From positions 4,942 through 28,941 of the forward strand of contig JACDZG010000011.1 in NCBI GenBank assembly GCA_013426805.1: a stretch of DNA of 24,000 nucleotides. The letters run 5' to 3'. The notes below the pieces were generated by a model. It searched no databases. It had not been told where the DNA came from and saw only the letters and a list, made by a program, of their open reading frames with translations. Of this stretch, positions 1-23,698 are shown piece by piece. The stretch comes from Chromatiaceae bacterium (GTDB lineage: Bacteria; Pseudomonadota; Gammaproteobacteria; Chromatiales; Chromatiaceae). Numbering within the stretch: the first letter of the stretch is position 1; each line of letters opens with the position of its first letter. The position numbers and the translations under genes were made by a program.

Positions 1-819
1 GAGCTCTTGCTTCAAGCCCTGAATAACGATGCCATCTATCTAGGGCCTTACAGACGACTGCCGTCCCGGGATTTTCGGCTGAGAGACGCGCCTTCCGCGC
101 CCGACTGGGGAAGTGGACTTGCCGCCTGGTATGCGTTGGCAGGCGCCGCCGATCCCTCGCTTGTGCAGCGGGTGAACGACTGGCTGTCCGGATCCAGCAC
201 CGGCTTTCGCACCGACTATTCCGTGGCAGTCCATCGAAATAAGATTGTCCCGATGGAAAGCTCGCTTTGGCAAGACCTCATGTCGGGCGATCTCGGCGCC
301 ATCGCGGACTCGATTCGCGAGCGACTTGAACAATTGCCGGAGGATGCGAATAAGCTTGAGCTTTGCGATGTCCGGACGGGCGTTTCGCTGGCACCCCAGG
401 ACCTTGGGGTGGGTATGTCGCAGCTCATTCCGGTCGTGGTCGCGGCGTTGCGACACGCCGCGGGAATCGTCGCCATCGAGGAGCCCGAGTCGAACCTCCA
501 CCCGGCCTTCCAGGTCGTCCTAGCCGACTTGTTCATCAGCCAGGCAAAGAGCAATCCCGACGCTCTGTTCCTGATCGAAACACATAGCGAGCACCTGATG
601 CTGCGCTGCCTGCGCCGGATCAGAGAAACGGCGAAGGGCGTCTTGCCGGAGGGAGTCCAGGCGGTGGTGCCGGATGACATCGCGGTGCATTTTGTCGAGT
701 CGACGGGAAGCGGGCCGCAGATTCGCCGCATCGAAATCGACGAGGATGGGGATTTCATTGACGAATGGCCCGGCGGTTTTTTTGAGGAGTCGTTCCATGA
801 AAAGTTTGCGGGGCGCTAA
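1..819 (+). CDS. AAA_15/AAA_21 (ABC-type) ATPase, C-terminal part with DUF3696-like tail; 5' end lies outside the window
   Basis: Frame 1 is open from base 1 (track ORF 7..819). It has Walker B/D-loop IVAIEEPESNLHP, H-loop LIETHSEHL, a GVGMSQLIPVV signature-like segment, and the C-terminal DEDGDFIDEWPGGFFEESF tail that I recognise from DUF3696-type ATPases. There is no Walker A in the window, so the N-terminus is missing. Confidence 0.75.
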   Translation, partial: ELLLQALNNDAIYLGPYRRLPSRDFRLRDAPSAPDWGSGLAAWYALAGAADPSLVQRVNDWLSGSSTGFRTDYSVAVHRNKIVPMESSLWQDLMSGDLGAIADSIRERLEQLPEDANKLELCDVRTGVSLAPQDLGVGMSQLIPVVVAALRHAAGIVAIEEPESNLHPAFQVVLADLFISQAKSNPDALFLIETHSEHLMLRCLRRIRETAKGVLPEGVQAVVPDDIAVHFVESTGSGPQIRRIEIDEDGDFIDEWPGGFFEESFHEKFAGR

Positions 820-821
820 GC

Positions 822-1832
822 ATGCTAGTTCCATTCGTCGTAGATCCTGAAAGTCTCGTACCGGAACCTTCGCAATCCAACGCGGACGCGTTGGATAGCC
901 ATATCGCGTTTCTGGAAACCTGGCAGCGCATTGGTCTATTGATATATGAAGAACCAACTTTTGAAGGGAGCCAGCTATGGCATAAGATTCATAAATTGCC
1001 CCAGTCCATCAGGTCGCTTTGGATGGAATTCCTGAAGCATAAATACGCCCTGATGGCCCCGACTCACAGAGGTTGGAGCGGGCATGTTTCTTACATCGCC
1101 CTGGAGCAGATCGTTGGCGAGGTTTCTGTTGCATTGGTTGATGAGACGATTGCTCTTGGGGAACTCAATCTCCCAGAAACCGACCTGCCAAAGGTCGTTG
1201 GAGGGCAAGGCGGTGTTGAGGTTTGCCTGCTGCGACGCGCAGGTCGCTCCCAAGTCTTCCAGGACGCAATAAAGCGTTCGGGAACACATATTCCTGGCGG
1301 TCAAGGGTACGAAACGACTTGGGCCGAGCGCTTTTATCGTTTGGCGACTGCCCCGATTAAGCATGTCGTTGTCGTTGACCGCTACGCGGTATGCCGGCAT
1401 CTAAACTGCCGACATGAGCATTATCTTTCGGGTATCGAGCGGTTCGTTCGCTTGCTGGACAGAGATGCCACTGGCCCGCGCCATCTCACCCTGTTTTCCG
1501 CCTTTGCCGAGGAGTGCCGAGAGGACATGCTGCCTGAGATAGAAGACTCACTCCGATGCATATTGCAGAGACTGTCCCGAAGGAACGTGAAGCGATTGAA
1601 GCTAGTGATGACAAAGAATTTCATATTTGGCCAAGACGCTCACGATCGCTTCGTCCGATTCGGCGACCATATTTGGGACTTGGGGATCGGCCTCGAAATT
1701 TTTGAGGGCTCGGCTTCTCCTGCGCGTTGCTCGGCGACGTTCAAGGCTCGAATCTGGGCGGATGACTACAGAGAGATTGAGCGGGCAATCGAATGTCATC
1801 CGAAAACGCTTGCGCGTAACATAGTCGCATAG
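822..1832 (+). CDS. hypothetical protein; C-terminal half resembles the MIT_C (MITD1 C-terminal, phospholipase-D-like fold) domain; partner of the upstream ATPase
   Basis: The ATG lies 2 nt after the ATPase stop (TAAGCATG). VVVVDRYAVCRH...IERFVRLL and HDRFVRFGDHIWDLGIGLEIF resemble, from memory, MITD1 IIEDPYIRHTHQ...FLRFCEML and [22 protein letters not shown]. The N-terminal ~170 aa are unassigned. Confidence 0.55.
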   Translation: MLVPFVVDPESLVPEPSQSNADALDSHIAFLETWQRIGLLIYEEPTFEGSQLWHKIHKLPQSIRSLWMEFLKHKYALMAPTHRGWSGHVSYIALEQIVGEVSVALVDETIALGELNLPETDLPKVVGGQGGVEVCLLRRAGRSQVFQDAIKRSGTHIPGGQGYETTWAERFYRLATAPIKHVVVVDRYAVCRHLNCRHEHYLSGIERFVRLLDRDATGPRHLTLFSAFAEECREDMLPEIEDSLRCILQRLSRRNVKRLKLVMTKNFIFGQDAHDRFVRFGDHIWDLGIGLEIFEGSASPARCSATFKARIWADDYREIERAIECHPKTLARNIVA

Positions 1833-1898
1833 AATGGTTGCGCCAATAAGCTATTAAGTCCTTCTGATCGCAAATATGCAAGAGCGAGGTTCGCAAGC

Positions 1899-2822
1899 AT
1901 GACCAGCGAAGCGGTGGTGGAAATTCATACGATCACAGTCAATGGCCTGCCTAAATTTGTGTCGGATTTTGATGGTCTTCGCTGCGCCATTGAGGGGCTG
2001 CGTGGAGGGATGAAATATCGTTATGGCTCCAGCGAAATACGGAACTGGGTCTTGGCAATGATGGCTGGCTGGTGCGGCAAAGAATGCTACAAGACATACC
2101 GCCTTAGTAAGTTCCTGCCTCTTGTACGGGCTAGGAGGTTCCCTTTGATAAATGGAAAGCTGCCTTGCCGCCATGATCTCGGGTCGCCGAAGCCTGATCG
2201 TACAACGATTGGCTACGGGCGTTGCAATATTCCCAACAAGCCGGTCTTTTACTGTTCGCTTTACGAAGACACGGCACTTGCCGAGTTAGATGCGCAACTG
2301 GGCGAAACGTTCGCAGTCGCTACATACGAGTTGCGCGAAAGTTTTTTAGTTTTTCCTTTAGGAGAGATAGATTACTTTCGTAGGACTGGGCAAACCTATA
2401 TTGGCCCAGCGCAGGGAGATGTCGTTGATCACTACCGGGAAATGCAGGCTAAAGAAAACTGGGATGGGATTCGCCTGTTGGACGCATTTCTTGCTGAACA
2501 GTTCCTTGAGCGCGCGACAAGCTCGGCTGATTACCGAGTGACGTCCGCGTTCTGCGATATCCTATTGGATGATTTTGGGGATAGGGGCGATGTGGATGCA
2601 ATTATGTATCCAAGCGTCGCTTTTCGTGCTGGCCTTAATTTTGCGGTTACTACGGAGGCGGAGCGAGTGAAGCTGCGGTTATTGCCGAAAGAGACAAGGA
2701 TCGTTCAAATTACGGAGGTGCTGGGATTCGGTATGTACAAGACAGAAGACCTATTCATTCTTGCAAGGGAGACGGAGCAAGGTGGACTGGAATGGGACAA
2801 GTGCGCCAGGCAAGATGCGTAG
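1899..2822 (+). CDS. RES-domain protein (NAD+-targeting toxin family), long form, no adjacent Xre/COG5642-type antitoxin
   Basis: GRCNIPNKPVFYCSLYEDTALAEL matches the RES Arg and Glu region (GRxN..g.pvlY.s....A..E). DAIMYPSVAFRAGLNFAV matches the Ser region (dgi.yPSv...g.N.v). G+C is visibly lower, with many A/T-ending codons compared with the core genes. Confidence 0.7.
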   Translation: MTSEAVVEIHTITVNGLPKFVSDFDGLRCAIEGLRGGMKYRYGSSEIRNWVLAMMAGWCGKECYKTYRLSKFLPLVRARRFPLINGKLPCRHDLGSPKPDRTTIGYGRCNIPNKPVFYCSLYEDTALAELDAQLGETFAVATYELRESFLVFPLGEIDYFRRTGQTYIGPAQGDVVDHYREMQAKENWDGIRLLDAFLAEQFLERATSSADYRVTSAFCDILLDDFGDRGDVDAIMYPSVAFRAGLNFAVTTEAERVKLRLLPKETRIVQITEVLGFGMYKTEDLFILARETEQGGLEWDKCARQDA

Positions 2823-2859: not shown

Positions 2860-4316
2860 CAGCCCTTTTAACGTGCAGCCAACATGCTGTAAGATATAGC
2901 TAATTTAATTTTTTTCGCGGACCCCATTGATCATGTTTGGTGAGATCCTCCAGAAATTTGCCGAGAAAAGTCCAGTCACCGTCATGGTGCGCGCCCTCTT
3001 GGAGCAGTTGCTCAACGCTGAAAAACTGGACCGCTGGTTCGAGGAGACACGCTGCAAGCAGTATACGCGCGACATCCTGTTTTCCTCTCTGGTCGGACTC
3101 CTGCTGCAAGTCGTCTGCAAGACGCGATCAAGCGTGCATGCGGCCTACCGCCATGCCGAGACTGGCACCTCCATCGTCGCCGTATACAAGAAATTGAAAG
3201 GGATCGAGCTGACCACTTCCCAAGGCTTGGTTCGTTACATTGCCGGGGAGTGCCGTGTCATGATCGAAACGATGCACGGTGAGCGTCCGGCGCTGCTGCC
3301 GGGGTACCGCGTGAAGTATCTGGATGGCAATTGTCTGGCGGCCACCGAGCATCGTTTGAAGCCGTTGCGCGACACGGCGGCGGGCCCCTTGCCCGGCAAG
3401 TCGCTGGTGGTGTTCGATGCCCAATTGGGCATCGCCGCGGATGTCTTTCCGTGCGCCGATGGACATGCCCAGGAGCGGGCCCTGCTGGGTAACGTGATTC
3501 CTACGGTGCAAGCGAAGGACGTGTGGGTCGCCGACCGGAATTTTTGTGTGACGCACTTCCTGTTCGGGATTCATCGCCAACAGGCGTATTTCATCATTCG
3601 GGAACATGCGGGGATTACGCCTAAGCCATTGGAAAAAATAAGATTTATTGGTCACAGCAAGAGCGGTGAAGTGTATGAGCAAGACATCCAGTTGACCGCT
3701 GCCGATGGCGCGCAACTGGTCCTGCGTCGCATCACCGTCATGCTCAACAAGAAGACCCGCAATGGCGATACGCGTCTGGTTCTGTTGACGACGCTGCCGG
3801 TCGCCGTTGCCGATGCTACCATCATTGCCGAGATCTACCGGACGCGATGGCGAATCGAAACCGCCTTTCCGAAGCTGACCTGCTATCTGAATTCCGAGAT
3901 CGATACGTTGGGTTATCCGCAAGCGGCACTATTCGGATTCTGCCTGGGATTGGTCGCTTTCAATCTCTATGCCGTCATCATGGCCGCGCTACGTGCCACT
4001 CATCCCACCCTGGACATCGATCAAACGATCTCGGAATACTACATGACGGGCGAGATTGCCGCGACCATGACCGGAATGAACCTGTTCGTTCCCGAGCACG
4101 AATGGCAACCGTTCGCCCACGCCACGCCGGATCAGTTTTGCGTGGCGCTGCTGTGGCTCGCCAGCTGCATTGATCTGCGTATCTTCTCGAAGACGACGCG
4201 AGGTCCGAAGAAACCGCCAACCGCGCGCACTAAATTCAAAGGGAAACCACATGTCTCGACCGCAAAGTTGCTCGCCGCCGCCGTGGTAGACCGAAAGTGA
4301 CACGTTAAAAGGGCTG
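2860..4316 (+). mobile_element. IS4-family insertion sequence (1457 bp) with perfect 16-bp terminal inverted repeats
   Basis: IRL is CAGCCCTTTTAACGTG (2860..2875) and IRR is CACGTTAAAAGGGCTG (4301..4316), its exact reverse complement. There is a single DDE transposase ORF and a flanking 10-bp direct repeat. Ends beginning 5'-CA and a 9-12 bp duplication are typical of IS4. Confidence 0.85.
2927..4300 (+). CDS. IS4-family DDE transposase
   Basis: DDE regions are YLDGNCL and VWVADRNFC, with the C1/YREK signature YRTRWRIETAFPKL. The stop codon abuts IRR. Confidence 0.9.
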   Translation: MIMFGEILQKFAEKSPVTVMVRALLEQLLNAEKLDRWFEETRCKQYTRDILFSSLVGLLLQVVCKTRSSVHAAYRHAETGTSIVAVYKKLKGIELTTSQGLVRYIAGECRVMIETMHGERPALLPGYRVKYLDGNCLAATEHRLKPLRDTAAGPLPGKSLVVFDAQLGIAADVFPCADGHAQERALLGNVIPTVQAKDVWVADRNFCVTHFLFGIHRQQAYFIIREHAGITPKPLEKIRFIGHSKSGEVYEQDIQLTAADGAQLVLRRITVMLNKKTRNGDTRLVLLTTLPVAVADATIIAEIYRTRWRIETAFPKLTCYLNSEIDTLGYPQAALFGFCLGLVAFNLYAVIMAALRATHPTLDIDQTISEYYMTGEIAATMTGMNLFVPEHEWQPFAHATPDQFCVALLWLASCIDLRIFSKTTRGPKKPPTARTKFKGKPHVSTAKLLAAAVVDRK

Positions 4317-4616: not shown

Positions 4617-5029
4617 TGGCCCGAGTTTATCCAGACGCCTGCATGGTCATCGACTTGGTGGAGGGCACTGCTGAGCAGCAGAACAAATTGAAGCTGGCCC
4701 TTAAGGGTCAGGATATCGTCAGTAGTGAGCTGATTCGGTTGGAAAGTCTGATCGGCGCTTTGCGCAGTAAGCACGGCGCTTATCTCGAAACCTATCGGAA
4801 GTTCTTCCTGGGTTGCACGATCATTCCGATGGACCGCGCGGTGTTTGAGCTGGCAACCGACCTGCGGGTTCAGTACGCCATCAAGACTCCCGACGCCCTT
4901 CATCTTGCGGCAGCGCTGCATGGCGGCTGCGCTGAGTTCTGGACCAATGACAAGCGTTTGGCCGTAGCGGGCGGAAATCACATCAGTATCGTGACCTGGA
5001 GCCACCTCGGCACATCAACGGGGCCGTAG
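4616..5029 (+). CDS. vapC: PIN-domain toxin VapC
   Basis: The four acidic PIN positions are present in order: VYPDACMVIDL, SSELIRLES, TPDALHLAAA, WTNDKRL. Start chosen at the ATG overlapping the antitoxin stop (track ORF begins at 4598 in the same frame). Confidence 0.8.
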   Translation: MARVYPDACMVIDLVEGTAEQQNKLKLALKGQDIVSSELIRLESLIGALRSKHGAYLETYRKFFLGCTIIPMDRAVFELATDLRVQYAIKTPDALHLAAALHGGCAEFWTNDKRLAVAGGNHISIVTWSHLGTSTGP

Positions 5030-5158
5030 CTTAGGGTGAGAAGCGAGTGCCGAACGCTTTTGACGCCTTGCGTGGCTTCCCCATGCCCCGGCGTTGCGTG
5101 GCTAATCCAGCCGCTGGAGCGGCCAAGACTGCATTCCCACGCAGGGCATGGGAATGAG
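5021..5158. repeat. copy 1 of a ~140-bp structured REP/MITE-like repeat
   Basis: Aligns with 7685..7830 in the same orientation. Shared blocks include GGGCCGTAGCTT(A/G)GGGTGAGAAGCGA and a 33-nt identical run GCCGCTGGAGCGGCCAAGACTGCATTCCCACGC. Contains hairpins GCCGC-TGGA-GCGGC and CATTCCCA-N9-TGGGAATG. Confidence 0.85.
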
Positions 5159-5181
5159 AAGACGGGAAGACGAGGTGAACA

Positions 5182-5415: not shown

Positions 5416-5830
5416 CGTGTTTCTGGACACCGCCTATGCGATTGCTCTTTCCTCGGCAAAGGATCAGTTTCATGTGCGTGCCATCGCGCTCGCCGAGCAG
5501 ATGGAGGCGGCGAGAACTCCACTCGTGACAACCCGTGCGGTTCTTTTGGAAATCGGCAACGCCTTATCCAAGCTACGCTATCGGCAGGCGGCGGTGAAAC
5601 TCCTGGACTCACTCGAAGCGGACCCGACGGTGGAGATCGTCCCGCTTTCCGAGGGGCTCTACGCCCGCGCCGCGAAACTCTACCGGGAGCGCACCGATAA
5701 GGAGTGGGGTCTCACAGACTGCATCTCAATTATTGTCATGCAGGATCGTGGGCTGACCGACGCACTCACCACCGACGGGCATTTTCAACAGGCGGGATTT
5801 CGGGCCTTGCTGCGCGAGGGCTTCTCGTGA
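5405..5830 (+). CDS. vapC: PIN-domain toxin VapC
   Basis: PIN acidic positions are VFLDTAYAI, VLLEIGNAL, LTDCISIIVM, TTDGHF. Start chosen at the ATG at 5405 (track ORF 5195..5830, same frame). Confidence 0.8.
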   Translation: MSTDVFLDTAYAIALSSAKDQFHVRAIALAEQMEAARTPLVTTRAVLLEIGNALSKLRYRQAAVKLLDSLEADPTVEIVPLSEGLYARAAKLYRERTDKEWGLTDCISIIVMQDRGLTDALTTDGHFQQAGFRALLREGFS

Positions 5831-6012
5831 CCATCAATAAAGGGGAGATCGACGCCATCGGCCAAGTGCATTCACTGGAGTCACTCATCCGCCTGCCGCC
5901 CGGTCGCTCCCTGCTCACATTGCTGGATGACCAAGCGAATGAGCCAGCCCTGTTGGCAGAGACGTCGCTGGCCAAAGATCGGGATGCGGCGACCACTGGA
6001 GACACACCATGA
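5827..6012 (+). CDS. possible 61-aa protein bridging vapC and the ATPase (GTG start)
   Basis: The GTG at 5827 overlaps the vapC stop (GTGA) and its stop overlaps the ATPase ATG (ATGA at 6009..6012). No family recognised. Could be non-coding spacer in an open GC-rich frame. Confidence 0.3.
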   Translation: MTINKGEIDAIGQVHSLESLIRLPPGRSLLTLLDDQANEPALLAETSLAKDRDAATTGDTP

Positions 6013-7085
6013 TCGAAAGCGTCGAGCTCAAAAATTTCGGCCCCATTGTGGACTTCGCCTGGCGCGATCTCTCGCCGATCAATCTGGTCATCGGGCGTAA
6101 CGGCACCGGCAAGACCTTCCTGCTCAAGGCGCTGTATTGTGCGCTCCGGGCACTGGAAGAAAAACGCGGCGACGAGCCGATGAGCTCCGGGGAGATCCTG
6201 GAGAAGAAGCTCTTTTGGACCTTTCAATATGACAACCTCGGGGATTTGGTGCGAAGCGGCTCCGCTGCCGACCTGTCCGCGAAGGTCATGCTGCGGTGGC
6301 CGATGTTTCCGCTCGAGCCGGCAAAGCCGCTCGCCTTTTCGATCCCCCAGAACGCCAAGCGGGGCGATGTCCGTTTCAAGAATCAGGCGATCAGAACCCC
6401 TAACTACACTTCGATTTTCATTCCCGCTAAAGAGGTTCTCTCTTTGCACAATGTGATCCAGCGGACGCGCCGGGACCTGCGCTTGTTCGGCTTCGACGAT
6501 ACCTATCTGGATCTTGTCGACGCCTTGAGCTATCAACCAGACGTCCTCGACTATCCGCAAGGCGTAGCGCAGCCGATGTCAGCGCTTCACCAGCGGGTTG
6601 GTGGCCGTGCCGATTACGATCTCGTCATGACGCCATCTCAGGGCATTCCGATTCCTCAAAGCGTCTGGCGCTTCCGCGTCGGCGATCGGGAGCACGCAAT
6701 CGGTCTGGCGGCCGAGGGTGCCCGCAAGCTCGCAGTCTTGGATCGTCTTCTGCGTAACCGCCAGCTACGCAGAGGGTCGATTCTGTTTGTCGATGAGCCC
6801 GAGTCGACGCTGCATCCGGAGGCGATCACCGCTTTTCTCGATGTGCTTTATTCATTGGTCGAGGCGTTCGGCCAGGATATTCAGATCTTCCTCGCAAGCC
6901 ACTCCTATTTTGTCGTCAAGAAACTGTATCTGATCGCCCAGGAGAAGGGAATCTCGATTCCCGTGGCCATGGCCGAAGGGGACCACTGGGAGACCGCCGA
7001 TCTGAAGGACGGCATGCCTTCCAATCCCATTATCGATGAGTCTATCCGGCTTTACAAAGAAGAAGTGGACCTGGTGTTGAAATGA
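6009..7085 (+). CDS. ABC/AAA_21-type (RecF/SMC-like) ATPase
   Basis: N-terminal IESVELKNFGPI, Walker A GRNGTGKT, signature-like LAAEGARKL, Walker B/D-loop ILFVDEPESTLHP, H-loop FLASHS. GGAG RBS lies 8 nt upstream. Confidence 0.85.
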   Translation: MIESVELKNFGPIVDFAWRDLSPINLVIGRNGTGKTFLLKALYCALRALEEKRGDEPMSSGEILEKKLFWTFQYDNLGDLVRSGSAADLSAKVMLRWPMFPLEPAKPLAFSIPQNAKRGDVRFKNQAIRTPNYTSIFIPAKEVLSLHNVIQRTRRDLRLFGFDDTYLDLVDALSYQPDVLDYPQGVAQPMSALHQRVGGRADYDLVMTPSQGIPIPQSVWRFRVGDREHAIGLAAEGARKLAVLDRLLRNRQLRRGSILFVDEPESTLHPEAITAFLDVLYSLVEAFGQDIQIFLASHSYFVVKKLYLIAQEKGISIPVAMAEGDHWETADLKDGMPSNPIIDESIRLYKEEVDLVLK

Positions 7086-7609
7086 ATGTTGGGGCGATTG
7101 TCGAGTCTGGCATGTCCTTCGGACCGTACCCTCAGGGGCACTGCTTCCATATCGAACGCAGCCGACTGTATGGGCGGATCGCGCACGGCGTCAAGATGGC
7201 TGAGATGATCGTGTTGCCTTGCGCCGCTGCCGATCCACCGCGCCTGTGGATCATCGAAGCGAAGTCGAGTACACCCCGTCCGGAGACGCAGCCGAGCTTC
7301 GACGACTTTATCTGCGAGATCCGCGGCAAGCTGATGAACGCCTTGACGCTCTTGATTGCGGCCTCGCTCGGACGACATGAGAACGGGCGCGACGCGCTTC
7401 CCGAGACCTTCAAGACGACCGATTTTGCTCGGGCCGACTTTCGGCTGGTGCTGGTCATCAACGGACACCAGGATGCTTGGTGCGTTCCCTTGCAGGATGC
7501 GTTGTCCAAAGCGCTGCACGCGACCGTGAGAACCTGGGCGCTCAAACGGACGTCGGTTGCGGTTATCAACGATGCCACGGCGCGACGATATGGACTGATT
7601 GATCTTTGA
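7082..7609 (+). CDS. small protein with a putative PD-(D/E)xK (restriction-endonuclease-like) core; partner of the ATPase
   Basis: ATGA overlap with the ATPase stop. A hydrophobic strand KMAEMIVL is followed ~12 aa later by LWIIEAKSS (ExK on a beta-strand-like segment), the usual spacing of PD-(D/E)xK motifs II/III. No other family recognised. Confidence 0.5.
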   Translation: MNVGAIVESGMSFGPYPQGHCFHIERSRLYGRIAHGVKMAEMIVLPCAAADPPRLWIIEAKSSTPRPETQPSFDDFICEIRGKLMNALTLLIAASLGRHENGRDALPETFKTTDFARADFRLVLVINGHQDAWCVPLQDALSKALHATVRTWALKRTSVAVINDATARRYGLIDL

Positions 7610-7684: not shown

Positions 7685-7830
7685 GGGCCGTAGCTTGGGG
7701 TGAGAAGCGAAATCCATACGCTTGTGCCGCTCCGTTGGGCTTCCCCGCGCCCCGACACTCCGGCGTCGCGTGGCTAATCGGGCCGCTGGAGCGGCCAAGA
7801 CTGCATTCCCACGCGGAGCGTGGGAACGAG
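7685..7830. repeat. copy 2 of the ~140-bp structured REP/MITE-like repeat
   Basis: See 5021..5158. The terminal hairpin here is TTCCCACGC-GGA-GCGTGGGAA. Translation gives the HAERGNE/PRGAWE-type pseudo-peptides typical of such repeats in GC-rich gammaproteobacteria. Confidence 0.85.
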
Positions 7831-7891
7831 ATGGTTCCGATTGCGATGATCGCACGCCGCCGGCGTGCACTACTTATCAGGAGACCAAGCA

Positions 7892-8223: not shown

Positions 8224-8259
8224 CCCGACGATATTCAAGCTAAGTTTGCGGAGAGGTCC

Positions 8260-8631: not shown

Positions 8632-9045
8632 TTAGTGCGGGGTTTGCTGTTGTTCGATGTACTGGCGCACGATGGAAATCGGGGCACCACCGCAGGACGC
8701 GGCGAAGTAGGAGGGCGACCAGAGAACGCCCTTCCAGTAGCGCCGCTGGAGGTCCGGCCGCTCTTGGCGTAGCAACCGGCTGGACACGCCCTTGAGGCTG
8801 TTCACCAGGGCGGACACCGCCACCTTGGGCGGGTACTCGACCAGCAGGTGAACATGGTCGTCCTCGCCGTCCATCTCCACCAAGGTGGCCTCGAAGTCGG
8901 TGCAGACCTTGGCGAAGATAGCGCGCAGGCTGGCGATAGCCTCGCCGTCGAAGACCTTGCGGCGGTATTTCGCCACAAAGACCAAGTTGACGTGCATCGC
9001 AAAAACGCAGTGCCGCCCGTGCCGAATGTCGTTGTCGTTGCTCAT
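8632..9045 (-). CDS. tnpA: IS200/IS605 Y1 (HUH) transposase TnpA
   Basis: HUH motif DHVHLLV, catalytic Tyr region LWSPSYFAASCGG, length 137 aa from MSNDNDIRHGRH (track ORF extends 14 codons further upstream). Confidence 0.9.
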   Translation of the reverse strand: MSNDNDIRHGRHCVFAMHVNLVFVAKYRRKVFDGEAIASLRAIFAKVCTDFEATLVEMDGEDDHVHLLVEYPPKVAVSALVNSLKGVSSRLLRQERPDLQRRYWKGVLWSPSYFAASCGGAPISIVRQYIEQQQTPH

Positions 9046-9058
9046 AGACCAATATACT

Positions 9059-10294
9059 ATGGACATGCAGCGTCTCCAAGCCTTCAAGTTCGAGTTGATG
9101 CCCGACGGCGATCAGGCGCGCGACATGCGCCGCTTCGCCGGATCGTGCCGCTTTGTCTTCAACCGGGCGCTGGCGATACAACAGGCGTTGCACGAGCAGG
9201 GGGCGAAAAAGCTCGGGTATCCGGCGCTGTGCAAGTGCCTCACCGAGTGGCGCAACAGCCCGGAAACCGCATGGCTCGCAGAGGCCCCGGTGCATCCGTT
9301 GCAGCAGACCCTCAAGGACCTGGAGCGGGCCTATACCAACTTCTTCGCCAAGCGCGCCGACTTTCCCCGCTTCAAGAAGAAAGGCCGGTCCCGCGACAGC
9401 TTCCGCTACCCCGACCCGAAACAGATCAAGCTCGACCAGGCCAACGGGCGCCTGTTCCTGCCCAAGCTGGGTTGGCTGCGCTACCGCAACAGCCGCGATG
9501 TGCTCGGCACGGTGAAGAACATCACCGTCAGCCAGTCGGGCGGCAAGTGGTTCGCGTCGATCCAGACCGAGCGTGAGGCGGAGATCCCGGTTCACCAGGG
9601 CACGGCCGTCGGGATCGACCTGGGCATTGTTCGCTTCGCTACCTTGAGCGACGGCGCAGTGTTCGAGCCCCTGAGCAGTTTCAAACGTCAGGAACAGGCG
9701 TTGGCGAAGGCGCAGCGCGCCATGAGCCGCAAGACCAAGTTCGGGAAGAACTGGAAGAAGGCGAAAGCCCAGGTCCAGCGCATCCATACCAAGATCGCCA
9801 ACGCCCGGCGCGACTACCTGCACAAGACCACGACCACGATCAGCCAAAACCACGCGATGGTGTGCATCGAGGACTTGAAGGTTCGCAACATGTCGGCGTC
9901 GGCGGCCGGGACGATCGAAGCGCCGGGTACCAACGTTCGGGCCAAGTCCGGCCTGAACAAAGCCATTCTCGACCAGGGTTGGTTCGAGTTCCGCCGACAA
10001 CTGGACTACAAGACGGCGTGGAGCGGTGGGCACCTGGTCGCGGTGCCCCCACAGAACACCAGCCGAACCTGTCCGTGCTGCGGGCATCTCGCCAAGGAGA
10101 ACCGGCAGACTCAAGCCCGGTTCGCGTGCGTGGAATGCGGTTTCGAGGAAAACGCCGATTTAGTCGGCGCGATCAATGTTCTAAGGGCGGGACACGCCCG
10201 GTTAGCCTGCGGAGAGACTTCGCTCATTGGAGCGTCGGCCCAGGAACCCGCCGAAGCGACTATTCGCGAGCAAGCTTTGCGCGTAGCGCCGTAG
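9059..10294 (+). CDS. tnpB: TnpB (IS605 OrfB-type RNA-guided nuclease)
   Basis: N-terminus MQRLQAFKFELMP. RuvC motifs are VGIDLGIV, VCIEDLKV, NADLVGAINV. Zinc finger is CPCCGH...CVECGF. Start taken at ATG 9059 (the upstream part of track ORF 8885.. is antisense to tnpA). Confidence 0.9.
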   Translation: MDMQRLQAFKFELMPDGDQARDMRRFAGSCRFVFNRALAIQQALHEQGAKKLGYPALCKCLTEWRNSPETAWLAEAPVHPLQQTLKDLERAYTNFFAKRADFPRFKKKGRSRDSFRYPDPKQIKLDQANGRLFLPKLGWLRYRNSRDVLGTVKNITVSQSGGKWFASIQTEREAEIPVHQGTAVGIDLGIVRFATLSDGAVFEPLSSFKRQEQALAKAQRAMSRKTKFGKNWKKAKAQVQRIHTKIANARRDYLHKTTTTISQNHAMVCIEDLKVRNMSASAAGTIEAPGTNVRAKSGLNKAILDQGWFEFRRQLDYKTAWSGGHLVAVPPQNTSRTCPCCGHLAKENRQTQARFACVECGFEENADLVGAINVLRAGHARLACGETSLIGASAQEPAEATIREQALRVAP

Positions 10295-10344: not shown

Positions 10345-10490
10345 GGCTCCGGAATCCCGGTTTTTTCGGCTTGGCCCGGGTAGCGTACGGTACCGTGACC
10401 TGGCCCGGTGAGATCGATATCGCCCCCGAAACCCTCTATGTCGAGGCGGTGCCGGAATGCGACGATGAAAAGGAGTCGATCTCACTGTGA
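10329..10490 (+). pseudogene. DUF2442-family gene, 3' fragment (53 codons plus stop)
   Basis: YPVFQRLRNPGFFGLARVAYGTVTWPGEIDIAPETLYVEAV... carries the DUF2442 C-terminal signature (vF.pL.dp..F..v.v...gtv.WP.g.DiaPe.LY). It is in frame with 8447..8551 once the IS is removed. Confidence 0.7.
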
Positions 10491-11467
10491 CTTCGCCATT
10501 TCAGGAACCGCTCATGGACACCCAGCCGCCCAACCCGGACTTTGCCGACCGCGCCCGCGCCGCCCTGCTCGCCCACGCCTGCGGCGACCGCTTCGGTGCG
10601 CCGCTGGAGTTCGTATCGGATCTCAGCGTGCGGACGCGCGCGGTCCACTTGGGCAATTGGACCGACGACACGCACATGTCGCTGTATCTCGGCGAGGCGC
10701 TGCTGGCCTATGGTCCCATCACGGACCAATCACCCTTTGCGGCTGATCGGTTCGGGACCCTGGTGGGTGAGGCTTTCGTGCGCTGGCTGCATGATCCACT
10801 GACTCCGACTACCGCACCCGGCAACACCTGCCTGACCGGTGCACGCCATTTCGAGCGTGACCGTGACTGGAAAACCAGCGGGATCCGATCGTCCGACGGT
10901 TGCGGGGCGGTGATGCGCATCGTTCCCATTGGACTCGCCTGGCGCGGGGAGGCGCTGCTGGAGGCGGCCCGGGTCTCGGCCCTGGTCACCCACGCGCATC
11001 CCAATGCGCTGGAAGCGGCGATGGCCGGGGCCTGGCTGGTCGGGCGGATTCTGGAGACCGGGGTCTGGGGCGCGGCCTGTGTGGAAGACGCGATCCGGCA
11101 TCTGGATGGACCCTGGAGTCAGGGCGGGAACCTGGCCGAGAGTCTGAGCGCCGCGCTGGACTGGGCGCAGCGGGGCAAGGAGTGGCTGGACGAGCCGGCG
11201 ATTCCACTGGGTGACGGCGGCTGGCGCTCGGGCAGCGCGTTGGGGCTCGCGGTGGCCGCGGCACTGCGCTGGCCCGACGACCTGGGGTTGGCGATCGAGA
11301 AGGCAGCGCGGATTCAGGGCGATTCGGACTCGGTGGCCTGCCTGACCGGCGCCCTGCTGGGGGCGGCCCTGGGGACAGCGGCGATCCCGCCGGCATGGCT
11401 CGCGACGCTGCCGCGGCGCGCCGAGATCGCCGGTCTGGCGGATCGGTTGGCGGCCATCAGGGCGTAG
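10487..11467 (+). CDS. ADP-ribosylglycohydrolase (ARH/DraG) family protein
   Basis: ARH motifs are ACGDRFGAPLEF, WTDDTHMSL and the C-terminal GDSDSVACLTGALLGA. The track start is a GTG overlapping the DUF2442 stop. An ATG at 10514 with AGGA 7 nt upstream is an equally good start. Confidence 0.8.
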   Translation: MTSPFQEPLMDTQPPNPDFADRARAALLAHACGDRFGAPLEFVSDLSVRTRAVHLGNWTDDTHMSLYLGEALLAYGPITDQSPFAADRFGTLVGEAFVRWLHDPLTPTTAPGNTCLTGARHFERDRDWKTSGIRSSDGCGAVMRIVPIGLAWRGEALLEAARVSALVTHAHPNALEAAMAGAWLVGRILETGVWGAACVEDAIRHLDGPWSQGGNLAESLSAALDWAQRGKEWLDEPAIPLGDGGWRSGSALGLAVAAALRWPDDLGLAIEKAARIQGDSDSVACLTGALLGAALGTAAIPPAWLATLPRRAEIAGLADRLAAIRA

Positions 11468-11575
11468 CTGCGGTCAGGACGATCGCATCAAACCAAGCGC
11501 TGAGTGCTGAGTGCGCTGTTAAGGTTTACCCTAACCAGCGGCTAACCCTGCCGTCGACTATGGACCCCGTTCGCC

Positions 11576-14500
11576 ATGCCCAGCACACCGGCCCCGTCAC
11601 CCGACCAAGACCCGTTTCTCTTCGACAGCGAGCAGATCCATGCGCTGGCCCCGCCCGGGCTGATTCGCAGCGCGCTGCGGCATTGCCAAGACAAACGCGT
11701 CACCGCGCTGGACTCGGACGGCGAGCGGCTGTGGGCGCGGGTCGAGGATGCGGAGACCGAAGCGCAGTTGGATCTGACCCTGGGCTATGACATCGATGGG
11801 AATCTCCGCTGCGAGTGTCAATGCGAAGCGGATCCGGACGGGCTCTGCGTGCATGGCCTGGCGGCCCTGTTTGCCCATAGTCAGGCGAGCGGCAGCGCCG
11901 GGGCGCTGACCGGGGCCGTGGCGGGCGCGATCGAGGAGCGTGCACTGCGCGGGCGCACCGAGGTGCAGGTGGAGCCGGTGTCGGGCGGCGATTGGCTCGG
12001 GACCTGGCGGGCGCGGTCCATCAATCCCACCGGGTATCTGCCCACCAGCTATCTGGTACACATCCGCTCGCTGACCCGCCGTGCCAACTGGTGCACCTGC
12101 CCGGACTTCGCCACCAATCAGCTCGGCACCTGCAAGCATGTGGAGGCGGTGCTCCATCGGCTGCGCAAACGCAAGGGCTTCAAGAAGGCCCGAGACGGGG
12201 CTCCGGACACCGCCTTCGTCTACCTGGATTGGGAGTGTGAGAACGCGCCGGCCGTGCGGTTGCAGCGCGCGGGTGAGACGAGCGTCGAGTTGGCGTCGCT
12301 GCTGAACGAACACTTCGACGCGGCTGGGGTCTTCCGGGGGCGGCTGCCGGACGGGCTGTTGCGGCTTGCCGATACCCTGGCTGGACGGCCCGATATCGAA
12401 ATGGGCGAGGACACCCTGGGCTTCGCCCGTCGACTGGCGGAGGACGCCGCCCGCCAGATCCGGGCGCAGGAGATCGGCGAGCGCATTCGCGCCGGCGGCG
12501 GGCGCCTGCCGGGTGTGCGGGCCACCCTCTATCCCTATCAGGTCGACGGGGTCGCCTTTCTGGCCGGACGCGGGCGTGCGCTGCTCGCTGACGACATGGG
12601 TCTGGGCAAGACGCTTCAGGCCATTGCCGCCGCGCATTGGCTGCACCAGCACGATCAGGTGGAGCGGGTACTGGTGATCTGTCCGGCCTCGCTCAAACGC
12701 CAATGGGCGCGCGAGATCGCCAAGTTCACCGGCGCCGAGGCGGAGGTGGTGCAGGGGCCGGTGGCGGGGCGCGCCGTCCAATACCGCAAAGGGACCGGCT
12801 TTTATGTCATCAACTATGAACTGGTGTTACGCGACCTGAGCCTGATCAATGAGACGCTGGGTCCCGATCTGGTGATCCTCGACGAGGCGCAGCGCATCAA
12901 AAACTGGCGCACCCGGATCGCCTCGGCGGTGAAGCAGATTCCCTCGCGCTATGCCTTTGTGCTCACGGGTACGCCCCTGGAGAACCGCCTGGAGGATCTC
13001 TACAGCCTGATGCAGGTGGTGGACCCGCGCGTACTCGGACCGCTGTGGCGCTATCTGGTCGATTTCCACATCACCGATGAACGCGGCAAGGTGCTGGGCT
13101 ACCGTAATCTCTCCGAACTGCGCCGCCGCCTGACCCCGGTGATGCTGCGTCGTGACCGCAGTCTGGTGCGCGATCAGCTTCCGGAACGGATTGAACAGCG
13201 GCTCGACTGCGCGCTGACCCCCAAGCAACAGGAAATCCACGACGAGGCCGTCAATGCCGCGGGCATCCTGGCGCAGATCATGAAGCGCCGGCCGCTGACC
13301 CCGTCCGAACAGAACCGCATGATGGCCGCGTTGCAACGGGCGCGCATGGCCTGTGATGCCGCCGGTCTGGTGGACAAGGAGACCGAGGGCTCGCCCAAAC
13401 TCGACGAGCTGGAGACGATTCTCGATGAACTGTGCCGACTGTCCGGGCTCAAGGCCGTGGTTTTCTCCCAGTGGGAACGCATGACCGAACTGGTGGAGCA
13501 GCGGGTGCGGCGCATGGGGCTGGGCTCGGTGCGGCTGCACGGCGGTGTCCCCAGCGCCAATCGCGGGGCGCTGATCGACCGTTTCCACGATGACGACGCG
13601 GTGCAGGTCTTCATCTCCACCGATGCCGGCGGTGTCGGCCTCAACCTGCAATGCGCCTCCGTGCTGGTGAATCTGGACATTCCCTGGAATCCGGCGGTCC
13701 TCGATCAGCGCATCGCCCGGATTCACCGGCTCGGTCAGCGCCAGCGGGTTCAGGTGATCCTGCTGGTGGCCCCGGACTCCTATGAGGAGCGGGTCCTGGG
13801 TCTGGTGCAGGGTAAGCGCGTGCTGTTCGACAATGTGGTGGACCCGGAAGCGACCGAGGACGTGGTCGATGTCTCCAAGCGGCTGGCCGAGGTCCTGGCC
13901 GGGGATCTGGCGGGTCCGGATGAGCGGGGAGCGACCGAGCACGCGGCCTCCGCCGAGCCTGAGCCTGAGCCTGCCGCGGACCTGCCCGCGGTCGAGCCGC
14001 CGGCCGCCCTCGCCGCGCCGGAGGACGAACCGAGCGTCGCGACGCCAAGCGACACGGCAGCATTACCCGAGCCGCCGCGCGGGTCACTCCCCACCGAAGC
14101 GGTGCGCGGCTGCATCATCGCGCTGCAAGACCGCTTCGGTACGCGGATCGAGCGCATCCTGGCCAGCCGCGGCGGGCTGCTGGTGGTGATGGACAGTACC
14201 GACGCGGAGGCCGACCAATTCGCCGAGGGGCTGTCGGATCAGCTCCCGATCGCGCTGATCGACCGCCGCACCCTGGCCGGGCTCCAACGGCTCGGGGCGG
14301 CCTCGCCGGCGGCGGAGGGCGAGATCCTGTTCGAGGCGGGGGCCGCACCGGTTCCCGTCGAGGGTCATCCCCTGGCCCGTCAGGCCCAGGCCAAGCTCGA
14401 GGGTGCTCGGGTGCTGCTGGCGCAGACCCAAGCCGGAGCCGCGCTCGGTGGGCCGGCGCTGGACCTGCTGCTCGGTGCCCTGCTGTGCGCCGCGGCGCTC

Positions 14501-14716
14501 CTGACCGGCCGGGCCCAACCGCCCAATCCCCGCGAAGCCGGCATCTGGCTTTATGGGGAGGCGCTGCCGACCGGTGCCATTGAGCCCGCCGATGCCGCCC
14601 TGGTGATGCGTGCCATTGCCCTGGCCCAGGCAGCGGAGGCCGTGCCCTTGGCTTTGCTGGAGGATTTGGCCGCGGATACCGAGCCATTCATACAACGGGT
14701 GCGAGGACGTGCGTAG
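11576..14716 (+). CDS. SNF2-family helicase with two N-terminal SWIM zinc fingers and a ~290-aa Ala/Pro/Leu-rich C-terminal extension
   Basis: SWIM motifs are CECQCEADPDGLCVHGLAAL and CTCPDFATNQLGTCKHVEAVL. SNF2 motifs are LADDMGLGKT (I), DEAQRIKN (II), LTGTPLENRLEDLYSLM (III), STDAGGVGLNLQ (V), WNPAVLDQRIARIHRLGQ (VI). Confidence 0.9.
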   Translation: MPSTPAPSPDQDPFLFDSEQIHALAPPGLIRSALRHCQDKRVTALDSDGERLWARVEDAETEAQLDLTLGYDIDGNLRCECQCEADPDGLCVHGLAALFAHSQASGSAGALTGAVAGAIEERALRGRTEVQVEPVSGGDWLGTWRARSINPTGYLPTSYLVHIRSLTRRANWCTCPDFATNQLGTCKHVEAVLHRLRKRKGFKKARDGAPDTAFVYLDWECENAPAVRLQRAGETSVELASLLNEHFDAAGVFRGRLPDGLLRLADTLAGRPDIEMGEDTLGFARRLAEDAARQIRAQEIGERIRAGGGRLPGVRATLYPYQVDGVAFLAGRGRALLADDMGLGKTLQAIAAAHWLHQHDQVERVLVICPASLKRQWAREIAKFTGAEAEVVQGPVAGRAVQYRKGTGFYVINYELVLRDLSLINETLGPDLVILDEAQRIKNWRTRIASAVKQIPSRYAFVLTGTPLENRLEDLYSLMQVVDPRVLGPLWRYLVDFHITDERGKVLGYRNLSELRRRLTPVMLRRDRSLVRDQLPERIEQRLDCALTPKQQEIHDEAVNAAGILAQIMKRRPLTPSEQNRMMAALQRARMACDAAGLVDKETEGSPKLDELETILDELCRLSGLKAVVFSQWERMTELVEQRVRRMGLGSVRLHGGVPSANRGALIDRFHDDDAVQVFISTDAGGVGLNLQCASVLVNLDIPWNPAVLDQRIARIHRLGQRQRVQVILLVAPDSYEERVLGLVQGKRVLFDNVVDPEATEDVVDVSKRLAEVLAGDLAGPDERGATEHAASAEPEPEPAADLPAVEPPAALAAPEDEPSVATPSDTAALPEPPRGSLPTEAVRGCIIALQDRFGTRIERILASRGGLLVVMDSTDAEADQFAEGLSDQLPIALIDRRTLAGLQRLGAASPAAEGEILFEAGAAPVPVEGHPLARQAQAKLEGARVLLAQTQAGAALGGPALDLLLGALLCAAALLTGRAQPPNPREAGIWLYGEALPTGAIEPADAALVMRAIALAQAAEAVPLALLEDLAADTEPFIQRVRGRA

Positions 14717-17635: not shown

Positions 17636-18664
17636 ATGCCCGTCCCATTCCCGTTTTCCGCCATCGTCGGCCAGGAAGAGATGAAGCTTGCGCTCCTGAT
17701 CGGGGCGGTTGACTCCCGCATTGGCGGAGTCCTGGTGTTCGGCGACCGCGGTACCGGCAAGTCCACGGCCATCCGCGCGCTGGCCGCCCTGCTGCCGAAA
17801 ATGCGGGTGGTGGCCGATTGCCGCTATGGCTGCGATCCCGAGGCCGAGGTCGGTGTGCTCTGCGCGGAATGCCGCGTGCGTCATAACGGCACCCCGTTCA
17901 AGACCAAGCAAGTCCCGGTGCCGGTGGTGGATCTGCCGCTGGGTGCCACCGAGGACCGGGTGATCGGCGCGCTCGATCTGGAGATGGCGCTGACACGGGG
18001 CGAGAAGGCCTTCGAGCCCGGGTTGCTGGCCCGCGCCCATCGCGGCTTTCTCTATATCGACGAGGTGAACCTGCTGGAGGACCACCTGGTGGACGCGCTG
18101 CTGGATGTCGCCGCCTCCGGTGAGAATCTGGTAGAGCGCGAGGGTCTCTCGGTCCGTCACCCGGCGCGCTTCGTACTGATCGGCTCCGGTAATCCGGAAG
18201 AAGGCGAGCTGCGGCCGCAACTGCTGGACCGCTTCGGTCTCTCGGTCGAGGTACGGACCCCGCAAGACCTGGCGACGCGGGTGCAGGTGGTGCGTTTGCG
18301 TGATGAGTTCGAGCGCAATCCGGAAGCCTTCACCGAGAAGTGGAAGCGCAAGGACGCCAAGGTGCGCAAACGCATCACCGACGCGCAGGCCCTGCTGCCG
18401 GCGATCGAGGTCCCGGACCATACGCTGGAGCAGGCCTCGCGCCTGTGCATGGCGCTCGGCACCGACGGTCTGCGCGGCGAATTGACGCTGGTCCGTGCCG
18501 CGCGTGCTCTGGCGGCGCTGGACGGCGACACCTCCGTGGGCGTTCCCCAGCTGCGCAAGCTCGCGGCCCCGGCCCTGCGCCATCGGCTGCGCCGCGATCC
18601 TCTGGATGAGTCCGGCTCGACCGCCCGCGTCGATCGGGTGGTTCAGGATCTGTTCCCGGCATGA
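17636..18664 (+). CDS. bchI: magnesium chelatase ATPase subunit I
   Basis: PFPFSAIVGQEEMKLALL, Walker A GDRGTGKST, Walker B FLYIDEVNLL, and conserved GNPEEGELRPQLLDRFG. Confidence 0.95.
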   Translation: MPVPFPFSAIVGQEEMKLALLIGAVDSRIGGVLVFGDRGTGKSTAIRALAALLPKMRVVADCRYGCDPEAEVGVLCAECRVRHNGTPFKTKQVPVPVVDLPLGATEDRVIGALDLEMALTRGEKAFEPGLLARAHRGFLYIDEVNLLEDHLVDALLDVAASGENLVEREGLSVRHPARFVLIGSGNPEEGELRPQLLDRFGLSVEVRTPQDLATRVQVVRLRDEFERNPEAFTEKWKRKDAKVRKRITDAQALLPAIEVPDHTLEQASRLCMALGTDGLRGELTLVRAARALAALDGDTSVGVPQLRKLAAPALRHRLRRDPLDESGSTARVDRVVQDLFPA

Positions 18665-22633: not shown

Positions 22634-23698
22634 ATGACCAGACAGTCGACCCTGGGCGCTTTACTGCGCAGCCAGGGGGTAAGCCGTCGCGCCTTTCTCA
22701 AGTTCTGCACCACCACCGCCTCGGTGATGGCCTTGCCGGCAGCGCTGATACCGGTCATGGCCGATGCCTTGGAGCAGGCTCAGCGCCAATCGGTGATCTG
22801 GTTGTCCTTTCAAGAGTGCACTGGCTGCACCGAGGCCCTGACCCGCTCGCATGCCCCGACCCTGGAGGGGCTGATCTTCGACTTCATCTCGCTGGACTAT
22901 CACCACACCCTTCAGGCCGCGTCCGGGCGCGCCGCCGAAGCGGCGCGGGAAGAGGCCATGCGGGAGCACGCGGGCAAGTATCTGCTGTTGGTCGACGGTT
23001 CCATCCCCACGGTGAAGGCGTATTCGACCATTGCCGGCATCAGCAATCTGGACATGCTCAGGAACTCGGCAGTCAACGCGGCAGCGCTTATCGCCGTCGG
23101 CACCTGCGCGGCCTACGGCGGTCTGCCCATGGCGGCCCCCAACCCCACCAGCGCCGTGCCGGTTTCCGACCTGATCACCGACAAGCCGATCATCAACGTC
23201 CCGGGCTGCCCGCCGCTGCCGCTGGCGATCACCGGGGTCATCGCCCACTACCTGACACTGGGCACCTTGCCCGCACTCGACGCGCTGGGCCGGCCGCTCG
23301 CCTTCTTCGGCGAAAACATCCACGACCGCTGTTACCGCCGCCCCTTCTACGACCGCGGACTCTTCGCCGAGACCTTCGACGATGTCGGCGCACGCAAGGG
23401 CTGGTGTCTCTACAAGCTGGGTTGCAAGGGGCCGGTGGCCTACAACGCCTGCGCCCATGTGAAATGGAATCAGGGGGTGAGCTTCCCGATTCAATCCGGC
23501 CACGGCTGCATCGGTTGCTCCGAGCCCGGCTTTTGGGACAGCGCCGGGATCTATGAATCCATCGCCGACGGCCAGTTCGGAACCGGACCGAAGCTCGCCT
23601 CGGCCGCCGTGGTGGGTGCCGTGGCCGGTGCCGGTGCCGCCCTGCTCGCCCGCGGCAAGAAGGAAAAGAAGGCGGCTGCCCACGCGGCCAACGAATAA
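22634..23698 (+). CDS. hynS: [NiFe]-hydrogenase small subunit, Tat-exported, Isp-type (group 1e-like)
   Basis: GGAGGA RBS. Twin-arginine signal SRRAFLKF. FeS-cluster Cys motifs are ECTGCTE, GTCAAYGG, VPGCPP, CLYKLGCKGP, GHGCIGCSEPGFWD. There is a C-terminal hydrophobic anchor plus a KKEKK tail. Confidence 0.9.
   Translation: MTRQSTLGALLRSQGVSRRAFLKFCTTTASVMALPAALIPVMADALEQAQRQSVIWLSFQECTGCTEALTRSHAPTLEGLIFDFISLDYHHTLQAASGRAAEAAREEAMREHAGKYLLLVDGSIPTVKAYSTIAGISNLDMLRNSAVNAAALIAVGTCAAYGGLPMAAPNPTSAVPVSDLITDKPIINVPGCPPLPLAITGVIAHYLTLGTLPALDALGRPLAFFGENIHDRCYRRPFYDRGLFAETFDDVGARKGWCLYKLGCKGPVAYNACAHVKWNQGVSFPIQSGHGCIGCSEPGFWDSAGIYESIADGQFGTGPKLASAAVVGAVAGAGAALLARGKKEKKAAAHAANE

Follow-up and report, generated by a model that had tools for sequence, protein, structure and literature searches.

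Gene pair at the locus

The locus described here lies in a 24,000-nucleotide stretch of DNA (the window) from contig JACDZG010000011.1 of a Chromatiaceae bacterium, and consists of two co-directional open reading frames (ORFs) on the + strand: ORF A (6009..7085), which starts with ATG and encodes an ATPase of 358 aa, and ORF B (7082..7609), also with an ATG start, which encodes a protein of 175 aa. The segment 6009..7609 is very probably a two-gene anti-phage module of the HEC-02 type, in which a compact ABC ATPase, of the kind found in SMC, Rad50, PtuA and OLD, is coupled to a small protein carrying a PD-(D/E)xK pattern, the putative nuclease effector. The start codon of B and the stop codon of A share the four nucleotides ATGA (7082..7085, +), an arrangement, read from the sequence, that suggests translational coupling. 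A candidate Shine-Dalgarno-like GGAG is present at 5996..5999 (+), leaving a 9-nt gap to the ATG at 6009. That this ATG is the true start of A is indicated by the alignment of its homologues: in 74 of the 80 genome loci encoding B relatives, which make up the locus set used throughout, they align from residue 1.

The preliminary description, made from the sequence, had proposed a 358-aa ATPase and a 175-aa protein joined by an ATGA overlap; both ORFs are found as described, and all of the motifs then named (GRNGTGKT, ILFVDEPE, ASHS, AEMIVL, IIEAKSS) are present in the translations. The left coordinate given for the locus, 5827, is not an alternative start of the ATPase: it is a GTG in a different frame, which opens a 61-aa ORF (5827..6012), discussed below.

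Homologues of both proteins are numerous. For A, more than 2,500 are found; for B, a word-indexed search returns 335, each of them labelled hypothetical and devoid of Pfam domains, and an exhaustive search returns relatives in 1,113 clusters at 50% identity. When compared with the orthologues from Candidatus Thiodictyon syntrophicum, the nearest relative, A and B have each a ratio of nonsynonymous to synonymous substitution rates (dN/dS) of 0.21: purifying selection acts on both genes. Because of these homologues and ratios, A and B are taken as real genes rather than ORFs that arise by chance in GC-rich DNA. Around the pair, scans for promoters and terminators gave nothing on the + strand, and the Rfam search found no match anywhere in the window.

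Assignment to HEC-02

Both proteins are matched over practically their whole length by models from PADLOC-DB v2. A is matched by PDLC04214 (HEC-02A) with E=3.5e-123, residues 1-356 falling on profile positions 1-336 of 338; B is matched by PDLC04221 (HEC-02B) with E=5.1e-63, residues 1-173 falling on positions 1-169 of 171, and by four further, weaker HEC-02B models. General collections say little: Pfam yields for A the generic AAA_21 and AAA_15 only, NCBIfam is of no added use, and neither of the two has a match for B. Models for PtuA, AriA, GajA, AbiLi and OLD match only the N- and C-terminal ATPase motifs of A, with scores hundreds of bits lower. Septu, PARIS, Gabija and AbiL were rejected as the identity of the pair, their ATPase matches being partial and far weaker than those of HEC-02, and B fitting none of their effectors.

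HEC stands for "Hma-embedded candidate", and HEC-02 was defined as an ABC ATPase with a NERD-like protein of the PD-(D/E)xK superfamily, carrying a (D/E/Q)xK signature (Payne et al., bioRxiv 10.1101/2024.01.29.577857). In the same work, a representative from Dickeya, expressed in E. coli, lowered the efficiency of plaquing of phages, both genes being required; HEC-02B was superposed on a NERD model, with matching catalytic residues; and HEC cassettes were reported as widespread irrespective of Hma (Fig. S1 legend). Location within Hma served as a guide to discovery and does not define HEC-02. No later name or mechanistic study of HEC-02 was found in the literature. The window pair features the following elements of this system: a full-length ATPase match and a full-length partner match, the two genes adjacent and on the same strand as in HEC-02, the ABC fold of A, and the ExK signature of B.

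The pair had been presented, in the preliminary description, as a candidate undescribed module, with a 175-aa protein that could not be matched by eye to any named family. This proposal does not stand: since profile searches place both proteins, full length, in a named and experimentally validated system, the module is not undescribed, and the small protein has a full-length HEC-02B match. The more general view of the pair, as a defence-type module in which an ABC-type ATPase is coupled to a small partner whose E...ExK core is PD-(D/E)xK-like, is retained.

A point of nomenclature was noticed in the database. In the seed HEC-02 models of PADLOC-DB v2, PDLC04145 and PDLC04146, the labels A and B are swapped: PDLC04146, labelled HEC-02B, is an ATPase model (Dickeya ATPase 8e-183, window ATPase 4e-29), while PDLC04145, labelled HEC-02A, is a small-protein model (Dickeya B 1e-85). 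The later models, PDLC04213/04214 (A, the ATPase) and PDLC04218-04230 (B, the small protein), follow the opposite convention, which is the one adopted here.

The ATPase

The translation of A contains a Walker A motif (GRNGTGKT, G29-T36, nt 6093-6116), a Walker B motif (ILFVDEPE, I258-E265, nt 6780-6803) and an H-loop (ASHS, A296-S299, nt 6894-6905), all on the + strand; between the two Walker motifs, a signature-like E236-G237-x-x-K240 is conserved in homologues. In sets of 30-74 homologues, the invariant residues are G29, G34 and K35 of Walker A, E236-G237-x-x-K240, D262-E263-P264-E265 and H298.

The AlphaFold2 (AF2) model of A has a pLDDT of 87 and a pTM of 0.89. A Foldseek search of the PDB with this model returns, as its best matches, Septu PtuA, SMC heads, Rad50, RecN, OLD and a retron PtuA (E~1e-12, TM-score ~0.5). 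These neighbours confirm that A has an ABC fold, as in Payne et al., and not an AAA+ fold; A is devoid of a coiled-coil. In the clade to which the window protein belongs, short loop insertions at 101-108, 207-216 and 286-288 add about 20 residues to the 337 aa of most homologues.

The small partner

Conservation in B was evaluated on 124 representatives, which share 30-50% identity. F13 and E59 are conserved in 100% of them, K61 in 99%, E25 and A60 in 98%, K83 and R98 in 96%, E8 in 94% and E41 in 93%. N86 is conserved too, and the N-terminal, beta-rich segment features a set of invariant residues: E8, S9, M11, F13, G14 and P15. The acidic and lysine residues looked for in homologues are thus kept, at 93-100%, across the family.

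In the AF2 model of B (pLDDT 91, pTM 0.90), the candidate catalytic residues fall on distinct secondary structure elements: E25 at the start of helix 24-33, E41, within AEMIVL (nt 7202-7204, +), at the start of strand 42-44, and E59-A60-K61, within IIEAKSS (nt 7256-7264, +), on strand 54-61. A long helix, 73-95, which bears K83 and N86, and a strand, 119-126, follow. As read from the secondary structure of the model, with no superposition, this order of elements fits an alpha-beta-beta-beta-alpha-beta core, like that of restriction endonucleases.

Searches for a relative of defined fold were less informative. Foldseek, run with the B model against the PDB, gives as its best match BsmI (E=0.09), with MUS81-EME1 further down, none of them significant; a search in BFVD gives one unnamed match (E=5.6e-4), while endonuclease I and proteins of the PD-(D/E)XK-like and RecB-like kinds are matched weakly. 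At the sequence level, Pfam at E<=10 finds NERD (PF08378) in none of 30 members of the B family, noise being the only output, and the same is true of PHROGs at E<=1. PDB sequences, searched with two B-family profiles, one of them built on 64 sequences, gave 0 matches. For Dickeya B also, Pfam reports no NERD match, the sole match being DUF6661, below threshold. Since no sequence or fold match reaches NERD here, the NERD assignment of HEC-02B rests on the published structural comparison.

Comparison with the tested pair and with related systems

The experimentally tested pair is that of Dickeya dianthicola NCPPB 3534, WP_024108366 (342 aa) and WP_024108365 (169 aa) (bioRxiv 10.1101/2024.01.29.577857, Supplementary Table 2), whose genes, by their coordinates, also overlap by 4 nt. 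The Dickeya proteins are matched by the same PADLOC models that are best for the window (PDLC04214, 4e-60; PDLC04221, 9e-6). Direct comparison shows a large distance: the two ATPases, aligned over the full length of A, share 24% identity (E=1e-21), and the relation of B to the Dickeya partner is not detectable by BLASTP. With hhalign, a 30-sequence B profile gives a weak match to Dickeya B (E=8e-4), while the broader, 64-sequence profile reaches 82% probability and E=1e-5 over 155 columns. In the latter alignment, E41 shares its column with D43, and E59-A60-K61 falls on E56-V-K58, so that E59/K61 correspond to E56/K58; K83 and N86 align with the K and N of "KLRNTL" in Dickeya.

The two pairs have thus in common a co-directional arrangement with 4-nt overlap, an ABC ATPase of about 340-360 aa followed by a protein of about 170 aa, an acidic...ExK...K-L-x-N pattern in the latter, and both proteins under PADLOC HEC-02 models. 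They differ at the first acidic position of the small protein (E41 in place of D43), in the clade-specific loop insertions of A, and in their surroundings: the window pair is not Hma-embedded, that is, not nested among hma helicase, methylase and ATPase genes, its neighbours being VapBC-type toxin-antitoxin (TA) pairs and insertion sequences (IS) of the IS4 and IS200/605 types. Because identity in A is as low as 24%, B is below BLASTP detection and only profiles link the B proteins, the window pair is, on sequence grounds, a member of a divergent HEC-02 subfamily, already modelled by PADLOC.

Other systems share part of this layout. Septu also combines an ABC ATPase with a small, separate nuclease, and PtuA is the best structural match of A (8eea, E=9e-13, TM-score ~0.5). 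B, however, has neither an HNH motif nor a match to HNH or PtuB profiles; A is shorter than PtuA, scores 22.8 bits with the NCBIfam PtuA model against a cut-off of 500, by its termini only, and is matched in part by PADLOC PtuA (E~1e-10). PARIS features an ABC ATPase of the AAA_15/AAA_21 type, with a small effector gene directly downstream, and AriA models match A in part (1e-21 for residues 163-303; 3e-18 for residues 1-53); in contrast, the AriA matches extend over only half of A and lie more than 300 bits below those of HEC-02, and B has no TOPRIM or AriB match.

Two sister architectures, HEC-01 (ABC ATPase with TOPRIM/DUF4276) and HEC-03 (DUF3696 ABC ATPase with PIN), were described together with HEC-02 (bioRxiv 10.1101/2024.01.29.577857). 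In both, related ABC ATPases are paired with another small nuclease, but the effector is a TOPRIM or PIN protein and not a PD-(D/E)xK-like one, and their ATPase models match A only at E~1e-11. As to NERD (PF08378) itself, the E...ExK pattern and the order of secondary structure elements in the B model agree with the published likeness, while a sequence-level match is missing for the window protein, for 29 relatives and for Dickeya B.

Distribution of the family

The 80 loci represent more than 8 phyla, with members of Desulfobacterota, Cyanobacteria, Gamma- and Betaproteobacteria, Verrucomicrobiota, Lentisphaerota, Acidobacteriota, Chloroflexota, Synergistota and Bacteroidota. In all 80, a homologue of A (43-54% identical) is found directly upstream of B, on the same strand, so that the two genes are conserved as neighbours across genomes, a point that had been left for verification. 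The exact 4-nt ATGA overlap is present in 71 of the 79 scorable loci, from many phyla. Among 72,556 plasmids, a relative is present in a single one, and none was found in phage records.

The surroundings of the pair vary widely. It is located between rpmA and thiS in Microcoleus, beside HipBA in Nitrosomonas and beside MazE/PIN in Desulfosarcina. In a metagenome-assembled genome from Desulfatiglandales (L089, contig_4, 825-12245) the pair lies inside a BREX-like locus, with a PglX-type methyltransferase on one side and, on the other, a 783-aa gene and then BrxL, a location which echoes the "embedding" theme of Payne et al. TA modules, BREX and housekeeping genes are unrelated contexts, between which the two genes travel together. 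The methyltransferase of the Desulfatiglandales locus is a 1125-aa protein, matched by MmeI_Mtase, Eco57I and N6_Mtase; upstream of it a second pair is observed, composed of an ATPase, perhaps frameshifted, that is broken into an AAA_15 and an AAA_21 part, and of a 176-aa protein.

Local context and rearrangement

The window is a variable island. HEC-02 is preceded, in this order, by the 3' end of a DUF3696/AAA_15 ATPase gene, a 336-aa gene, a RES-domain gene, an IS4-type transposase and two PIN-type TA pairs; it is followed by a ParE-like fragment, IS200/IS605 tnpA-tnpB, an ADP-ribosylglycohydrolase and a SNF2/SWIM helicase. This gene content agrees with the setting first reported for the pair, which has TA modules, IS elements and another ATPase system around it.

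In Candidatus Thiodictyon syntrophicum (locus L084), five genes are contiguous: a DUF3696 ATPase, a 363-aa gene, a 237-aa gene, HEC-02A and HEC-02B. By blastn, window 5975-7615 corresponds, at 93%, to the Thiodictyon HEC-02 genes plus 34 nt upstream of them, while window 5163-5982, comprising an AF2212-like/PIN module and most of the 61-aa ORF, corresponds to the sequence found downstream of HEC-02B in Thiodictyon. The junction, which is also the upstream limit of the conserved HEC-02 block, is located at about 5975..5982. Since the sequence to its left matches the downstream side, and that to its right the upstream side and the HEC-02 genes of Thiodictyon, the window block is, by these alignments, a circular permutation of the Thiodictyon block (L084 6894-9257), where HEC-02 comes before the TA module.

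The 61-aa ORF (5827..6012, +, GTG start) spans this junction. It has a GTGA overlap with the upstream PIN gene and an ATGA overlap with HEC-02A, and looks like a third coupled gene. Its last 11 codons, however, are the 3' end of the Thiodictyon 237-aa gene, and the remainder matches sequence that follows the PIN module; with dN/dS values of 0.34 for the frame of the ORF and 0.31 for another, it shows no frame-specific constraint; and it matches no family in Pfam or PADLOC. It was therefore rejected, both as an upstream start of the ATPase, being in another frame, and as a gene, being a junction chimera with no coding signal. The same ORF is predicted by the gene caller on a Logan contig (L001).

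Two direct copies of a repeat of about 140 nt, identified by repeat search and blastn, bracket the block formed by the AF2212-like/PIN TA module and HEC-02: the left one at 5021..5159 (+), the right one at 7685..7831 (+), 76 nt downstream of the stop codon of B. The two copies are 77-86% identical and contain short GC-rich hairpins, such as GCCGCTGGAGCGGC and TTCCCACGC...TGGGAA. Only these two copies are found; Thiodictyon lacks the repeat, and Rfam gives no match for it. It could be an element of the repetitive extragenic palindromic (REP) type, or an attC-like one. The pattern could be that left by a tandem duplication followed by deletions, or by excision and re-insertion; a circular intermediate is another possibility.

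Immediately downstream of the right repeat, the segment 7865..8223 (+) contains a 71-aa ORF overlapping a 52-aa ORF, the latter with a sub-threshold match to the first half of the ParE-toxin profile (E=1.4e-3): it is probably a decayed TA pair of the ParDE type. Two mobile elements flank the region. Upstream, a 457-aa DDE transposase of the IS4 type is encoded at 2927..4300 (+). Downstream, an IS200/IS605 element comprises a Y1 TnpA at 8632..9087 (-; Pfam E=4e-43) and a TnpB at ~8885..10294 (+), matched by OrfB_IS605 and by a Cas12f1-like TNB domain. An AT-rich inverted repeat, with 29-nt arms (8333-8361 and 8419-8447) that are 86% complementary, is located just outside the tnpA end, and may be the end hairpin of the IS.

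Other genes in the window

The second ATPase system occupies 1..2822 (+), and is composed of the 3' end of the DUF3696/AAA_15 ABC ATPase gene (1..819, +), a 336-aa protein and a 307-aa RES-domain protein; its counterparts are located at L084 3070-6931 and L086 2895-6805. The ATPase is 94% identical to Thiodictyon at the amino-acid level, and is matched in PADLOC by PDC-M55A (1e-36), NsnB (3e-24) and a model labelled HEC-03B. Up to 838, the DNA is 92% identical to that of Thiodictyon, and the similarity ends exactly where the partner gene starts: the 336-aa product is 39% identical to its counterpart, and the third gene is swapped outright, a RES-domain gene being present in the window and an unrelated 237-aa gene in Thiodictyon. 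No PADLOC or Pfam match is found for the partner proteins of the ATPase. It looks as if partner, or effector, genes had been swapped behind a conserved DUF3696 ATPase.

Further downstream, 10487..14716 (+) encodes a 326-aa ADP-ribosylglycohydrolase (Pfam E=1e-50) and, directly after it, a 1046-aa helicase of the SNF2 family (11576..14716, +) with a weak SWIM zinc-finger match. The latter, the only helicase in the window, is matched in PADLOC by ZorD (2.5e-65), DpdE (1e-62) and, only at 1e-29, HmaA; no other Zorya, Dpd or Hma components are seen near it. The two may form a separate defence or repair gene pair.

Further on, the gene for a ChlI/MoxR-type AAA protein of 342 aa overlaps by 4 nt the next one, which encodes a protein of 636 aa with AAA-lid and VWA domains; the two look like a Mg-chelatase pair of the BchI/BchD type. 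A NiFe hydrogenase small subunit is also encoded in the window, these genes lying in 17636..20571 (+) and 22634..23698 (+). They agree with the DNA being chromosomal and from a purple sulfur bacterium near Candidatus Thiodictyon, to which the shared segments are 92-93% identical in DNA.

Proposed mechanism and alternatives

As in PARIS or Septu, the ATPase may act as a sensor of infection, or as a regulator. Bound to the nuclease in nearly stoichiometric amount, it would keep the latter inactive, coupled translation favouring a fixed proportion of the two proteins. On meeting a phage cue, the ATPase would use nucleotide binding or hydrolysis to release or activate the nuclease, which would then cut nucleic acid, either DNA or RNA, and thereby halt replication of the phage, perhaps with loss of the cell. 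We give this scheme about an even chance of being right. PARIS is known, from its published structures, to work by scaffold and release, and by analogy this appears the most plausible template for HEC-02.

A subfamily so widespread and distant might also work in a different way. B lacks a significant neighbour among solved structures and has an N-terminal segment with invariant residues of its own, so that it may be a strongly derived variant of PD-(D/E)xK, whose N-terminal module docks on the ATPase or senses the trigger, with a PARIS-like release onto an RNA or tRNA target rather than cleavage of DNA; this variant is regarded as unlikely. The same lack of significant matches to solved nucleases or to Pfam NERD, by sequence or structure, together with the failure of even Dickeya B to reach NERD by sequence (DUF6661 only, below threshold) and with the invariant E8, S9, M11 and F13 of the beta-rich N-terminal segment, might suggest that B is not a nuclease at all, but a non-catalytic adaptor or sensor with a chance ExK motif, the effector being the ATPase or a host factor. 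We consider this very improbable: E25, E41, E59 and K61 are kept at 93-100% in spite of an overall identity of 30-50%, they sit on elements of the model in the order of the restriction-endonuclease core, nucleases dominate even the weak fold matches (BsmI, MUS81-EME1, endonuclease I, PD-(D/E)XK-like, RecB-like), and the published superposition on the NERD model has matching catalytic residues (Payne et al.).

Two further alternatives concern the role and the extent of the module. The pair might be mainly a TA-like addiction or stabilisation module of a mobile or variable island, with B as toxic nuclease, A as ATPase antitoxin, and phage defence as an incidental effect. TA modules indeed adjoin it, both here (two VapBC-type pairs and the ParE-like fragment) and elsewhere (HipBA, MazE/PIN); the Pfam description of AAA_21 mentions an AbiEii/type IV TA toxin; and the block is flanked by direct repeats and rearranged with respect to Thiodictyon. 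Such a role is quite unlikely, given that a distant homologue lowers phage plaquing, with both genes needed, that near-absence from plasmids (1/72,556) and absence from phages ill suit an addiction module, and that the pair is also found between housekeeping genes. Abortive-infection systems are, on the other hand, formally TA-like, and the defence and TA readings are not mutually exclusive. The last possibility is that HEC-02 forms the distal end of a larger system of five genes, encoding in this order a DUF3696 ATPase, proteins of ~340 and ~230 aa, HEC-02A and HEC-02B, and split in the window by IS4 and TA insertions and perhaps non-functional. The five genes are co-directional and contiguous in Candidatus Thiodictyon syntrophicum and in a 74%-identical metagenome contig, the third overlaps HEC-02A by 4 nt in Thiodictyon, and its last 11 codons are still present upstream of A in the window, which also retains the DUF3696 ATPase at 1..819. 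Yet tblastn finds no protein of the DUF3696 trio in any of 80 other HEC-02 loci, so that its proximity is lineage-specific and does not reveal a larger system. In addition, the Dickeya system works as a two-gene cassette; the middle gene of the trio is 39% identical to that of Thiodictyon between flanks at 92-93% in DNA, indicating independent modules; and both HEC-02 genes are still under purifying selection. The five-gene system, extremely improbable, was therefore rejected in favour of the two-gene HEC-02 module.

The family is already known, being present in PADLOC-DB with one member validated as an anti-phage system, and the locus is a new example of it. Its remaining value is that it belongs to a divergent and very widespread HEC-02 subfamily, so that studies of the mechanism could reasonably take the window pair as a second representative; the conservation data point to the residues to be mutated, namely E25, E41, E59-x-K61, K83, N86 and R98, and E8/F13 in the N-terminal segment. 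The comparison with Thiodictyon shows the module being shuffled, as one piece, between defence and TA contexts, in keeping with the notion of modular, mobile defence cassettes.

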